From a virus: a DNA stretch of 21,262 bases. A model generated the notes under the pieces. It saw nothing but the letters and a program-made list of their open reading frames with translations. It was not told the DNA's origin and did not search any database. The DNA is taken from the UHGV virus genome UHGV-0196349; one strand, given 5' to 3'. Made by a program: the position numbers and the translations under genes. Positions 722 through 6,017 of this stretch are shown one piece after another. Within the stretch, counting starts at the first letter, position 1. Each line of letters opens with the position of its first letter.

Positions 722-3667
722 TTAGTGCTTCCCTTCTATTAAGTCTAACCTAGCTTTTATCTTATCCATTTCTCTGCGCTGCCATGCCGCCTCGATATAG
801 AATAAGAGATCAGGCCTGACCCCCCATCTAGATCCTGCTGGCGTTATTTCAACGCGCTCAATGATGTCTTCCATTACCATCACTGGATTATCATCCTCAT
901 CAACAATGATGCTCCCGTCATTATCAGTCAGCGGCATTTCCCTTTGGCCAGTAATGACGTCATCATATACTGCGGGATAATCGTCATAGCAAAGAAACGC
1001 ATAGCGGCATGTTGTGCTTTCTTCTTCCATGAGTCCGTGAGAAATAAGAACATCACGAAGTTGCTGCGCGATTACACCATGATGTATCCTCGCCCCTTCT
1101 TCCCCCTTTATAGCGACAGCGTTCAGCCATTTATAAGCGATATACCTGACGTCACCCCAGGCATCCAGCAATGTTTCGTCAGGAGAGACCGGCTCTGTCT
1201 TTAATGTTCCGTCACTGGTAACCACAGGATTGGAGCCAAGATAAACTATCGAGAACCTGTTTCCCGGACCACCAAGAGCATTTACATTATCAAGATAAGG
1301 TTTAACATCTCCGTTCTCAAAAAGATGTTCGAGTGCGTTATATACCGCGCGACGTGGAGTACTGCTTCTGGAACCATGCAACGTTATCATTGCACCATCT
1401 GCTGAAGACGTTGTTTCACCGCCGCTAACGATTAATCTCTGAGCGGTAACATCATCAGACGGTACTTTCTTCGCAATAATGGCGTAATTACCCTCAAGTT
1501 TGACTTCCGCGCGAACTTGTCCTGATGTACCTGCATGGACAGTCAGTGACTGGACGGCAACATCATCTGTGAAATCAACGGGTACAGGAACCGTCCTCAC
1601 GCCTGACGTCGACATAAAAGTAGGAAGCGTTCTGTTAGGAGTGGCTCCGTAGACAAAATCCCTTGAAACAAATTCTTCCTGTTTAATTTTCACCCTGAAA
1701 CAATACAAATCAGCCGGGTGACCATCGTGAACATAAGGATATTTTCTGTTGTTATCCCCTATGCTCCATGGGTTTAGAAAGTCTTCCCCACCGAAAATGT
1801 AGTACAGCCAGTTGTCTTTGATACAAACTGAACCAACACCAACCGCAGAGTTAACTATTCCGCCCTGATAAATCTGATCAGTAACATTAACCCACTCTAC
1901 ATTATCCAGACTCCACTCATTGACGTTAACTCTGGTCATAAATGTTCTTGGATAATTTCCTGCATAACGGTTATCAGGTTCTCCTCCTTCCCACTCACCA
2001 AATGCGCGCTCACTGCCAAAAATAATCAGCTCATCGCCAACTTTGGCAAAAGGAAGGTTTGAGTGATGAACATTATTTGGGAAGCGAAGAGAGTTCCATG
2101 ATGTACCTAAATCAGAGCTTCTGTGCAATGAACTACCGGGTTGAGTACTTAATGTCCCCCTGGTCGTCAGATACAGAATGCCATCATAATATTTTACACA
2201 TGGCTCAGATGCATTCGCCTCATATTCTACAGGTATGCGTCTGCGAACAAAGCTACCAGGAGAACCGAAAGCATCAGAGAAATAGAGTATCCCAAGCTCG
2301 CGTGGACCAATATCACCATTATGGTAGCCAACAGCAAAACTGTTATCGCTAATCGTCGCAAAACTGTGAATCTCAGTAACAGGAGTGCTTCCGTCAACAA
2401 AAGAAGGAATAGTTCCAAGACTGGTTTTTCTCCATGGTGACGAGTGAAATGATGTACCAAAACTCCAGTATCTACCCTCGTTATTCTGATCCACATCCTG
2501 GGTATTTTGCGTCGTAACTGTAAAGGTATTTTTATCAATAACAGTAGTCACCGTCATATTCCCGGTAACATCTGTAACACCAGAGTTTGAGAAGTTGACA
2601 AAATCACCAGCAAATAATCCGTGATCAGTAATGCGAATATAAGCGACTTGCTGATTTGCTGCTTTCGTTATACCACCATAAACGCGAAGGCTGCGACTCA
2701 TTGGGCGATCCCACAACTCTGCAACCTGCAGTTTATTTCCTCTCACGGTCCGCGTCTCAATTACAGCAAAAAGGCGATTTCTGACAACCCCCATACTCAT
2801 GCAGTGATAGTTAACTGTGGGATAGTTTTCATGTAAATCTGTAAGCCATTCCGGCGTTGTCCAGGTCTTCCCGTCATCTCCTGAGCGAACCCATGCAACA
2901 TGGAGGTTATTTACACCATGGCGGTCTCCAGCCATAAAAGGCGCATAGATGACATTGTCATATACAAACGTTTTATCCTGCGTCCAGGCGTTGTACCACG
3001 GTGTATCTGTAATTTTAAATAACTCTCCCTGGATAAAATCTTCAGAAGCATAAAAAAGAGGCTGACCCGGTATTCTCTCAAATAAAAAACGAGCATTTTT
3101 AAATCGACTGACATCTGGAAGAGTTGATACTTTAAAAGTAAGCCCTCGCCCATCTATCTTTTCACCACCTGTTGCAACAGAAAGTAATTCTGATAGAGCT
3201 GATGTATCATCATGAACACCATCACCAATAGCCCCCCAACCTCTTACATCATAACTGTCTCTCCATCTTGCTATCTGAAGTTTTGGGTATTTATTCGCTC
3301 CATCTGGGTCTTCTAATTGCTGCCGTAGTTGATCAGGGTCATACTTCAGCACATTAGGAAAATAGAACTGCTGCGCACCATACGCATCATAAACAGCCAT
3401 AGAATGGCCTTGCACGGTAACGAATTTGGCAATCTGTCCGTTATATACAGGATATCCAGCAGCGTTAATGATTATTGGTTGCGAAACAGGAACGTGAGAA
3501 CCGTCTTCGTTTTCCACATAAACCTGAATCTGGTTTTCAGGATTTACAGGGTCAGTGTCAATTTTACCGATATAAATTTTGCCATTGGCTACGGCTTTAA
3601 AAGAACGCGCCATAGTGAAGAGTTGCGAAGGCATCGATACGATCACATTGGCTGTAATGTCTCTCAT
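722..3667 (-). CDS. Chimeric tailspike: P22 gp9-type N-terminal head-binding domain + endo-N-acetylneuraminidase (K1 polysialic acid endosialidase) + C-terminal intramolecular-chaperone autocleavage domain
   Basis: 981-aa ORF. The N-terminus ([10 protein letters not shown]...[33 protein letters not shown]...[14 protein letters not shown]...NVLKYDPDQ) is near-identical in pattern to the P22 tailspike head-binding domain. Asp-box sialidase motifs are present ([16 protein letters not shown]). The C-terminus has the S74-type motif [11 protein letters not shown], with a Ser...Lys dyad at the expected cleavage serine (codon at 1214-1216). ATG at 3667 with GGAG about 11 nt upstream. Confidence 0.85.
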
Positions 3668-3767: not shown

Positions 3768-4703
3768 TCAGTAGTTATGTACTGAAGGAGGTAATTCTTT
3801 ATTCTTAAGTCTCATCCATGCGGAAAGATTCGTTGGTCCATCTGGCTCATTGATATCAACATCTCGTGTATGGTTGATTAAAACATCTCTCGCCATATCG
3901 ATAATACGGGAGAACTCATAACCGCAGTCATGACATCTGCCGGAATAGTTCGATTGAATTTGTTTCAGCGCCGGATACAGTTCGCGGAATAATGCCTGTG
4001 AGCGGTTGGCATAATCCCATAACCATACAAGGCTGTTTGCTTCTTTTGCAGAAAGCTCGTCGGTTTTCTTCTCTTGTTTGCCAATGAACTCACCTTCAAG
4101 CGGAACGCGAGCAGCAAGTGACAGTGCTTCGGTAAACTGCTCCTCACTGATTTCTTTGTACGAACATCCAAAATGGGATTTCAGTGACGACCACATGGTG
4201 ATCATCGCCTTAGCCTGTTTTTCTTTTGGCAGAGACTGACCGCGACTCATGACGAGTTGTTTAATGGCTTCCTGCTGTTCAGTGGTGATTTTACCCGGCA
4301 ACGCCTTTTTAGATTTGCGTGGGTTAACTACATAGCCTTTAGTCCAGTAGTCATGCAGCACGCTAAAGCATTCCTCCTGGTACTGAATCAGTTTATCACG
4401 GATGTCAGCACGAACTTTCTCAGGGTTGATGCTGAACAGCCATCCATTTAACTTCTTCAAAGGAAGGCAGAGTAGCTTACGAAGCTTCCCATCAGCGGCA
4501 ACCATGTTCATATGAACACAGTTGAATTTGCTAATCTGCTTCATGAGTTTTGTTTGCTGCGTTGACCAGCTCATTCCAAGGTTTTCAACGATTGGCTTCA
4601 TCGCAACATATGCAACTCCGGCAGCAATGGCGGTGATAATTTGCTGACCGTTGAATGGTACGTAAGAGGTGTTCACTGCTTCTAAAATTGCTATACTATT
4701 CAT
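3768..4703 (-). CDS. ant: Antirepressor Ant
   Basis: Translation from the internal ATG at 4703 begins [43 protein letters not shown], matching the P22 Ant N-terminus. GGAG lies 9-10 nt upstream. The ORF-track start at 4769 is an in-frame upstream extension that overlaps the preceding gene. Confidence 0.85.
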
Positions 4704-4765
4704 GTTGGTTTTTCTCCACGGATTTACTGACAACCGAAGCCCTGACTGTTCCCGCAGTTGGGGCT

Positions 4766-4969
4766 TCAACTTTCTGATCTATCAGTTATATCTTTCCCTT
4801 CATATACTTCACCTATATTGCTAATGCTGGCAGAACATCCAAGATGCTTGTATCTTATGATGTCCAACACGCAGTCACTACACAGCATCCGACCTGTTTC
4901 TTTAGAGTAAATGTATGTTTGATCAGCGTCTGATTCGCTAATGCCGCAGAAACAACATTCTTTACTCAT
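4766..4969 (-). CDS. Small Cys-rich protein (CxC...CxxC, putative zinc-ribbon) inserted between arc and ant
   Basis: 67-aa [39 protein letters not shown]... Its ATG overlaps the arc stop as ATGA (4969-4966), suggesting translational coupling. No recognised homolog. P22 itself has no gene at this position. Confidence 0.5.
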
Positions 4970-5118
4970 ACCATTACCCCCTCTCTCTTCAAGCTGTCTA
5001 TCAGGCGCTTGATAACCTCTGAGTTAAACGACCTGCACTCTTCCTTTGCCCTGCTACCTATAGCATCCTTTAACGACTGCGGCATCCTTACCAAAATCTT
5101 ACTTATTTCTTTCTCCAT
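4966..5118 (-). CDS. arc: Arc-type ribbon-helix-helix repressor
   Basis: 50 aa from the ATG at 5118 (GGAGGG SD 5-6 nt upstream): MEKEISKILVRMPQSLKDAIGSRAKEECRSFNSEVIKRLIDSLKREG. The motif ..RSxNSE... and overall alignment match P22 Arc. The ORF-track start at 5154 is a TTG extension. Confidence 0.8.
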   Translation of the reverse strand: MEKEISKILVRMPQSLKDAIGSRAKEECRSFNSEVIKRLIDSLKREGVMV

Positions 5119-5232
5119 GTTACCCTCCACACAAACAACTCTTTTCGAATACAAAAGATATCAAAGTGAGTATATCTAGTCAAAATTTTTTTGCATACAC
5201 TTTGCTATCAAATTGAATACCAAAGGTGTGAT
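5119..5232. promoter_or_regulatory. Divergent immI control region (Pant leftward, Pmnt rightward) with candidate operators
   Basis: Minus strand: -35 TTGACT (5183..5178), 17-bp spacer, -10 TATCTT (5160..5155). Inverted repeat AGATAT-N10-ATATCT (5156..5177) overlaps the spacer and -10. A second inverted repeat TCTTTT-N7-AAAAGA (5140..5158) lies over the predicted start site. This mirrors the P22 O-arc / O-mnt layout, but the sequences differ from P22 operators. Confidence 0.4.
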
Positions 5233-5481
5233 ATGGCAAAGGGTGTGTCAATTTCTCCAACTACGGTAAGAATCCCTGAATCTTTACGCGAGGCTCTTGC
5301 TGTCAGAGCATCAAAAAATGGTCGCTCTGTTAACTCCGAGATCGTCATGATTTTGCAAGCCGCGATTGATGAAGATAGGTCGCCAAAGTCAGTTGAGTCA
5401 TTTGCTCAGCAAGAAGCTGACAAATTCAAAGAGGCGCTGCTTGAGACGCTAAAGACCATGTATGGTAAGGATGAAAAATAA
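5233..5481 (+). CDS. mnt: Mnt-type ribbon-helix-helix maintenance repressor
   Basis: 82 aa from the ATG at 5233: MAKGVSISPTTVRIPESLREALAVRASKNGRSVNSEIVMILQ...LETLKTMYGKDEK. The RHH core ..NGRSxNSE.. and P22 Mnt-like length fit. It is transcribed opposite to arc-ant, as in P22 immI. Confidence 0.8.
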   Translation: MAKGVSISPTTVRIPESLREALAVRASKNGRSVNSEIVMILQAAIDEDRSPKSVESFAQQEADKFKEALLETLKTMYGKDEK

Positions 5482-6017
5482 TGCTGCACACAATTCATTT
5501 CTTATGCCCCGTTAACACTGCCACTGTTGGGCAACTTCAGAACCACTGTCTCACCGCATTATCTCAAGGCGCAACTGAATTAAATATCCATATATCAAGT
5601 CAGGGAGGGGAAACTGCCGCTGGCTTTACTGCGTATAACTTTCTTAAGTCACTCCCTGTTACCGTTAGAACTCACAACATAAGCAATGTTGAATCCATAG
5701 CTAATATCGTTTTCCTGGCTGGCTCAGAACGTTTCGCAAACCCATTATCAAGATTCCTGTTACATCCTCTATTATGGTGCTTTGCCTCCCCAGCCGCCGA
5801 CCATGCCAGATTGAGAGAGTACGGGAAATGCCTCGATAACGATCTTGATCGCTTCGTTGAGACGTTCAATATCGACATCGGAACCCATATTAGGTGGGCA
5901 TCCCTGATAGCAGACTCGACCATTTTGGATGCTAACAAGGCTCTTGAGCATGGCATAATTAATTCCATAAAAACTGCAAGGCTGGTATCCAATCAGGCAA
6001 ACTGGTGGGTTGTTTGA
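5481..6017 (+). CDS. ClpP-fold (Clp/crotonase-like) serine protease-like protein, coupled to mnt
   Basis: 178 aa. The start overlaps the mnt stop (TAATG). It aligns by eye to the ClpP core: IHISSQGGE ~ YINSPGG; AAGFTAYNFL ~ TAGMSIYDTM; NVESIANIVFLAG ~ GQAASMGAFLLTAG (nucleophile Ser in register); RFLLHPL ~ RVMIHQPL (His in register). It is shorter than ClpP and lacks the N-terminal axial region. Confidence 0.7.
   Translation: MLHTIHFLCPVNTATVGQLQNHCLTALSQGATELNIHISSQGGETAAGFTAYNFLKSLPVTVRTHNISNVESIANIVFLAGSERFANPLSRFLLHPLLWCFASPAADHARLREYGKCLDNDLDRFVETFNIDIGTHIRWASLIADSTILDANKALEHGIINSIKTARLVSNQANWWVV

Follow-up and report, generated by a model that had tools for sequence, protein, structure and literature searches.

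The spacer between the divergent arc and mnt genes of the window, a 21,262-nt stretch of a Lederbergvirus (P22-like) prophage segment of E. coli, is the promoter/operator region of an immI module, a membership that follows from gene content and promoter position. With moderate confidence, we consider this module to be a homologue of P22 immI that would employ a diverged O-arc element for Arc and extra half-site copies for the control of mnt, with a specificity and a layout that differ from those of P22.

Gene content and promoter of the module

The genes around the spacer have the arrangement of P22 immI: arc and mnt are divergent RHH genes, ant lies downstream of arc, and sar is positioned at the start of ant (Table 1). 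BLASTP aligns the arc product with P22 Arc at 39% identity, and its PDB matches are Arc structures, including 1arq/1baz. For the mnt product, the identity to P22 Mnt is 36% across residues 11-79, a range that includes the C-terminal region, and its best PDB match is 1mnt; the last 30 residues, where tetrameric Mnt has its coiled-coil tetramerisation domain, can be aligned to P22 Mnt up to residue 79-81. Over the segment that contains sar (4700-4773), identity is 100% to phage epsilon34 and 97% to P22. Since sar is near-identical to its P22 counterpart while the Arc and Mnt proteins are only 36-39% identical to theirs, a sharp mosaic boundary is apparent.

Table 1. Positions of the genes and sequence elements discussed in the text (window coordinates).
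Feature	Position	Strand	Description
Tailspike	722-3667	-	CUS-3-type endosialidase tailspike; P22-type head-binding N-terminus fused to endosialidase
ant (antirepressor)	3768-4703	-	Pfam P22_AR_N E=2e-44, P22_AR_C E=6e-28
sar (antisense RNA)	4704-4771	+	Antisense to ant start; Rfam RF00262, 95.6 bits (gathering score 43)
Small ORF between arc and ant	4766-4969	-	67 aa, CxxC...CxxC; start overlaps arc stop
arc homologue	4966-5118	-	50 aa, begins MEKEISKILVRMPQSL; Pfam Arc E=4e-12
arc-mnt spacer	5119-5232		114 bp, AT-rich
Repeat 2	5140-5145 / 5153-5158		TCTTTT / AAAAGA, 7-nt gap; centre 5149, over predicted Pant start
Pant -10 and extended -10	5155-5163	-	TATCTT (5160-5155), TG (5163-5162)
Repeat 1	5156-5161 / 5172-5177		AGATAT / ATATCT, 10-nt gap; spans Pant spacer and -10
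O-arc-homologous element	5156-5178		In Pant spacer; repeat 1 forms its outer arms
Pant -35	5178-5183	-	TTGACT, from promoter scan; aligns with P22 Pant -35
A/T tract	5184-5193		5' of Pant -35; AAAATTTTTTTG from 5182
Second half-element copy	5198-5209	- (inverted)	GATAGCAAAGTG
Third half-element copy	5217-5228	+ (direct)	ATACCAAAGGTG
mnt homologue	5233-5481	+	82 aa, begins MAKGVSISPTTVRIPESL; Pfam Arc E=1e-10
ClpP-like ORF	5481-6017	+	178 aa; Pfam CLP_protease E=2e-11; ATG overlaps mnt stop (TAATG)

Two genes set the window apart from P22, namely the small ORF between arc and ant and the ClpP-like gene 3' of mnt. The small ORF was considered as a ClpX zinc-ribbon protein and rejected: it is without a Pfam match, and only a weak similarity (E=0.002) connects it to its positional counterpart in locus L275, for which a precomputed zf-C4_ClpX match exists. 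A switch flanked by a ClpX-zinc-ribbon-like and a ClpP-like protein would be a curious pairing. The ClpP-like ORF is annotated as 'ATP-dependent Clp protease proteolytic subunit' in E. coli genomes and as 'head maturation protease' in phiv205-1, and a gene of this kind also lies 3' of mnt in L009 and L277. In the window this ORF and mnt, the maintenance repressor gene, apparently share a transcript, hence the ORF would be expressed from the prophage.

The nearest phage records to the window are phiv205-1, EC.P3, and S.Kent 1-2-1, and prophage Sp6 of E. coli O157 Sakai matches the arc-mnt module at ~72% identity. The tailspike implies a K1-capsule-specific prophage whose immI module is unlike that of CUS-3. 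Phage CUS-3 (E. coli K1) has the endosialidase tailspike and a homologous ant region, with 95% identity across 4733-5049, but the match ends at 5049 and CUS-3 carries another immI type, with a 46-aa Arc (MKVKTLRMPEKL...) and an Mnt that begins MSDRKYKNPQVNLRLP. The CUS-3 spacer contains two direct GGTACGCAT repeats 21 bp apart. An apparent absence of arc from CUS-3 was remarked upon in the epsilon34 paper (PMC2629481). In the CUS-3 record (CP000711; L006, ~2780-2980, and L281) no arc is annotated and the stretch is named 'boundary sequence'; the 46-aa Arc-family ORF is present and divergent from mnt.

A promoter scan of 4700-5600 returned a single sigma-70-like site, TTGACT-17-TATCTT on the minus strand. 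The same scan found both known P22 promoters, and P22 Pant aligns with the window site. The site thus occupies the P22-homologous place, at a distance to arc of 36 nt here and 39 nt in P22, and its spacer, invariant in relatives, is 10/17 identical to that of P22. The predicted start is at ~5148, from which Pant reads into arc, the small ORF, sar, and ant. The -35 is kept in every locus of the immI class, with one Serratia variant (TTGCCT), and the -10 retains the form TAnnnT through substitutions (TACCAT in L269-L272, TATCAT in L010), which supports the promoter assignment. The A/T tract 5' of the -35 is almost invariant across the immI types of the class and is a possible UP element.

In P22, Pmnt is returned by the same scan as TTGAGA-17-TATCAT. 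The consensus scan detected no Pmnt overlapping Pant face to face, as it found no plus-strand promoter-like site in the window, L004, or L009, a result compatible with a weak non-consensus promoter, and every Pmnt candidate picked manually was poor. The window spacer is 24 bp longer than the 90-bp spacer of P22, and all of the extra length is on the mnt side.

The O-arc-homologous element and its half-element copies

The residues of the DNA-contacting strand are Q9/N11/R13 in P22 Arc and H6/N8/R10 in P22 Mnt (literature numbering). The window proteins have K7/L9/R11 and P9/T11/R13, respectively, with only the arginine kept. The first-pass annotation had remarked on the departure of the Mnt strand from that of P22, and the pairwise alignment bears this out. 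It had also found no match to the P22 operators; indeed, neither O-arc (ATGATAGAAGCACTCTACTAT) nor O-mnt (AGGTCCACSGTGGACCT) has a match in the window when up to 3 mismatches are allowed. Operators and recognition residues both differ, so that, judged from sequence, the P22 immI specificity is not shared, and the distinct specificity proposed in that annotation is very likely.

The Pant spacer nevertheless carries an element related to O-arc. When the comparison is anchored on the -35, the window 21-mer at 5158-5178 (ATATCAAAGTGAGTATATCTA) is identical to P22 O-arc (ATAGTAGAGTGCTTCTATCAT) at 13/21 positions. Window 21-mers average 5.3 +/- 1.9 identities, and 0.04% of them reach 13. The promoter spacer taken alone matches P22 O-arc at the 10/17 positions given above, a level reached by 0.3%. 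Among relatives, the commonest allele attains 14/21 and that of Serratia L010 15/21. Both TAGA boxes of P22 are replaced in the window, TAGA by CAAA and TCTA by TATA. The arms of the element contain 5-6 symmetric matches of 11, akin to the imperfect dyad of P22 O-arc; about the P22-equivalent centre the dyad symmetry of 5158-5178 is poor, the second half (GAGTATATCTA) being unlike the first. The window is without an O-mnt-like sequence: at the position equivalent to O-mnt (centre ~5140) the identity to the P22 operator is ~5/17 and the window lacks symmetry.

Loci were gathered by means of their Mnt and Arc proteins, and 42 of them have the repressor beta-strands of the window. The informative diverged loci are L269 and L271/L272 from Klebsiella, the metagenomic L270, and L010 from Serratia. 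In these, identity to the window is 72-86% in the coding DNA of arc and mnt, compared with 91-92% in the spacer core (5147-5226). Invariant runs cover 5147-5153 (GAATACA), 5162-5176 (CAAAGTGAGTATATC, with one variant at 5167), 5181-5204, and 5215-5226, and the second of these is unchanged in 17/18 distinct sequences with the same strands. Part of the core conservation is explained by promoter elements, namely the extended -10 TG, the -35, and the A/T tract. However, thirteen invariant spacer bases (5164-5176) are not constrained by RNA polymerase, which points to a bound regulator. These data, and above all the 13/21 identity, suggest that the Pant spacer contains an Arc-operator homologue of altered sequence, of which repeat 1 would be a weak residual dyad and not the determinant.

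The best-conserved half of this element, GATA(T/G)CAAAGTG at 5157-5168 (core ATAKCAAAGTG), has two further copies in the spacer, so that the window contains two more operator half-elements than P22. The second copy is 11/12 complementary to the first (P=0.017 in shuffles) and lies 40 bp from it, beyond the -35 and the A/T tract. The third copy is placed just upstream of the mnt ATG, over the ribosome-binding site. It is invariant across lineages that resemble the window, and sister types have CAC-N-GTG instead. In the 21-kb window TANCAAAG has 8 matches, 3 of which fall in a 67-bp stretch of the spacer. A tandem-like duplication extends over the mnt start codon (5217-5250; ATACCAAAGGTGTGAT followed by ATGGCAAAGGGTGTGTC), and this places a fourth CAAAG...GTG motif in mnt codons 2-5. 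Pairing within the mnt leader RNA is possible for the 15-nt segments 5194-5208 and 5233-5247, which are 80% complementary; the second of them belongs to the coding sequence and is changed in L269/L271.

Which protein occupies which site, and with what effect, we infer from these resemblances. Transcription from Pant would cover arc, the small ORF, and ant, sar being antisense to the start of ant. The Arc homologue, with K7/L9/R11 on its beta-strand where P22 Arc has Q9/N11/R13, would bind ~5156-5178 as two cooperating dimers and shut off Pant. The extra copies at 5198-5208 and 5217-5228 would control mnt transcription or translation, either by Arc repression or by Mnt autoregulation, and would stand in for the overlapping Pant/Pmnt arrangement of P22. 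Mnt may use the CAAAG-containing sites instead of repeat 2. ParG and MetJ bind several short related boxes, direct and inverted, with AT-rich DNA between them (PMC3413123). The likeness of the window to these systems would be an analogy confined to the organisation of sites as a box array, with no homology beyond the RHH fold.

Sister immI types and alternative readings

Sister immI types, which include those of vB_EcoP-611R6 (L004), PhiR12_1 (L009), and prophages of Klebsiella, Pectobacterium, and Serratia, have in common with the window the -35 and A/T-tract core, the spacing, about four sites, and the gene order, often with a ClpP-like gene or a small zinc-ribbon ORF. They differ from it in that site cores and repressor strands change together (Table 2). 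The copies that flank the -35 resemble inverted repeats in every type and change in concert across ~8 immI types, the paired copies being GATAKCAAAGTG, ATATCAC-N-GTG, TATCAY-N-GTG, or CTACAC-N-GTG depending on type. In register, the flanking copies are 56% complementary, compared with at most 38% in 16 slid registers, and 3-5 columns are doubly changed; because the types are few and related, these counts do not represent independent events and are supportive of covariation, not statistical proof of it.

Table 2. Repressor strands and site cores of the immI types.
Type	Arc strand	Mnt strand	Site core
Window	K-L-R	PTTVR	ATAKCAAAGTG
L004	R-L-R	PYSVR	TATCAC-N-GTG
L273	K-L-R	PFSVR	TATCA core; copies differ (TATCATTGTG / TATCAAATTG)
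L045, L275	D-I-R	PYGVR	TATCAY-N-GTG
L293	R-V-R	PYGVR	As L045
L276, L292	P-x-G-I-R	PYGVR	TTACAC / CTACAC-N-GTG
L009, L046, L277	PLGIR	PLGIR / PMGIR / PLGLR	CTACAC-N-GTG at four places

In the ~10 repressor/spacer combinations that we compared, a rule in which Arc binds the sites and a rule in which Mnt binds them both fit, because the Arc class (x-[ILV]-[ILV]-V-R or P-x-G-I-R) and the class of the Mnt N-terminal arm are perfectly linked in this sample. A tentative alternative, which we consider somewhat unlikely, is that the CAAAG(G)TG sites at 5158-5168, 5198-5208, and 5217-5228 are operators of a tetrameric Mnt homologue and not of Arc. In the lysogen, Mnt in the Pant spacer would then repress ant, and autoregulation of mnt would fall to the downstream copies, while Arc would share these sites or read the flanking TATC/GATA boxes. 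The distribution of cores fits such an assignment at all three sites: CAA-A-GTG occurs only with Mnt P-T-T-V/I-R, and every Mnt with S or G at position 11 is paired with CAC-N-GTG. The window and L004 types have near-identical DNA-facing residues in Arc and yet differ in their cores (CAAAG versus CAC-N-G), which fits Mnt (T11 versus S/G11) better than Arc, and the K7R Arc variants L023/L122 retain the window-type spacer. Further, the recombinant L293 combines a window-like Arc and an L045-type Mnt with an L045-type spacer, the CAC-G-GTG centre is also present in P22 O-mnt, and four CTACAC-N-GTG sites fill the region in the L009 type, where Arc and Mnt have the same strand (P-L-G-I-R). By position and sequence, however, the site in the Pant spacer is the homologue of P22 O-arc and not of O-mnt. 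The pair L275 and L276 also argues against the assignment to Mnt, as their Mnt strands are identical (IAPYGVRMP) while their outer sites differ (TATCAY versus TTACAC/CTACAC) in step with the Arc class, unless the difference is due to the N-terminal arms of Mnt. The recombinant and this pair give opposite indications as to whether Arc or Mnt reads the sites, and we prefer Arc as the putative ligand of the O-arc homologue.

L293/L294, from Klebsiella aerogenes, represent a natural recombinant with its junction at the arc start codon. It combines an Arc of the window/L004 kind (MENEISRIVVRMPQSL) with an L045-kind spacer and mnt, is present on at least 9 contigs, and is presumably functional. In PhiR12_1 (L009, 1675-1784), Arc and Mnt are nearly alike in their N-terminus and recognition strand (KVRDIAPLGIRIP, GARDISPLGIRIP), and one of the four sites in the spacer is a perfect 13-bp palindrome. 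In this type a single motif is probably read by both repressors. The L009-type module is carried by lambda-like, not P22-like, prophages.

It is distinctly doubtful that, in the class as a whole, three to four related sites arrayed around the Pant -35 replace the scheme of one Arc and one distinct Mnt operator, with both paralogues reading the same or overlapping sites. Were this so, the expression of ant versus mnt would be set by oligomeric state and site pairing, and not by separate operator sequences; a Mnt tetramer, for instance, might span the 40 bp between the inverted copies, over a bent A/T tract.

The first-pass annotation had described two inverted repeats in the spacer and had likened their geometry to that of the P22 Arc and Mnt operators, a reading that gives exactly two P22-style operators, repeat 1 for Arc and repeat 2 for Mnt, with the 6-bp arms as half-sites. 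Both repeats are present where it placed them, and the coordinates and the promoter scan agree that they overlap the spacer/-10 and the predicted start. Their positions relative to Pant fit such an arrangement, and repeat 1 coincides with the O-arc homologue. The geometry shared with P22 is a rough one only: the centre of repeat 2 is 9 bp off the O-mnt equivalent and nearer the -10, and the arms of repeat 1 are spaced 16 bp centre to centre as opposed to 9 bp for the P22 TAGA boxes. The conservation expected of the repeats in relatives with the same repressor strands was not found. Of the 42 loci, repeat 1 is perfect in 5, matches at 5/6 in 33 (AGATAG), and matches at 3/6 in 4 (TGGTAG; L269-L272). 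Repeat 2 is perfect in 34, at 5/6 in 4, and at 4/6 or fewer in 4; it is degraded to 3-4/6 in L269, L271, and L010, in all of which the Mnt strand is unchanged. Far from being conserved determinants, the arms contain the most variable bases of the core, as 8/21 arm positions vary versus 7/66 elsewhere (Fisher P=0.007).

Some changes do respect the symmetry of the repeats. In Serratia L010 the outermost pair of repeat 1, A:T in the window, is replaced by T:A. Repeat 2 has one compensatory change in L270 (CATTT..AAATG), and its centre is common with that of perfect palindromes in two sister types, L004 (TTGTGAATCACAA at 5149) and L045 (TGTGATATCACA at 5148.5). These palindromes at the Pant start make a symmetric site there plausible for the class, with a degenerate form in the window type. 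On the basis of its position, the L270 change, and the two sister-type palindromes, TCTTTT-N7-AAAAGA is a weak candidate for a Mnt operator, and the only candidate for a separate one. A role of repeat 2 in RNA was rejected, since the predicted start is downstream of its right arm. We also weighed the 17-bp palindrome GTATTC-N5-GAATAC of Serratia L010 as the actual Mnt operator of this type, and rejected it because only its GAATAC arm is present in the window. The picture of two P22-type operators was thus correct in placing an Arc-operator-like element in the Pant spacer, but it overlooked the two extra half-element copies and the absence of a P22-type overlapping Pmnt, and as a description of the whole region it is unlikely.

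The occurrence of such repeats by chance was assessed with 5000 dinucleotide-preserving shuffles of the 114-bp spacer, which were searched for perfect 6-bp repeats with a gap of 3-12 nt. At least one repeat was present in 32% of the shuffles and at least two in 5.6% (P=0.056, marginal), and the repeats alone are weak evidence. Still, it is very unlikely that both are chance features of an AT-rich promoter, with a conservation due to RNA polymerase elements and the mnt leader and operators that cannot be identified from sequence: the shuffles, the polymorphic arms, and the coincidence of several invariant bases with promoter elements would all agree with this, but the polymerase-independent invariance of 5164-5176, the match to P22 O-arc, which argues for homology, and the concerted change of two copies across types would not. 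We retain the diverged Arc operator with additional half-site copies as our preferred reading.

Distribution and significance of the module

Of 5,426 complete E. coli genomes, 659 contain a match to the arc-mnt module, and ~108 carry the window's own type, at 95% identity or more. The module is also present in Klebsiella, Serratia, Pectobacterium, and Salmonella. A scan of genome contigs yielded one locus. A metagenome scan with a class-specific core pattern produced 9 chance matches and no immI locus, and a scan of viral contigs with a short core pattern produced many chance matches and no new immI type.

P22 Arc and Mnt are textbook models of beta-sheet DNA recognition. The 'ant moron' is variable among P22-like phages, and the P22 version alone has been studied (PMC2629481, PMC8022706). 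Our literature search found no description of operators from non-P22 immI types. The region analysed here is an uncharacterised variant of a well-known phage switch; a different specificity is expected in a mosaic module, and nothing is overturned. Within the class, repressor strands and operators vary in matched pairs, a natural series from which a recognition code could be worked out. Candidate pairs of this code are PTTVR with CAAAG, PYSVR or PYGVR with TATCAC-N-G, and PLGIR with CTACAC-N-G, and such pairs of strand and operator would predict which prophages are hetero-immune at immI.
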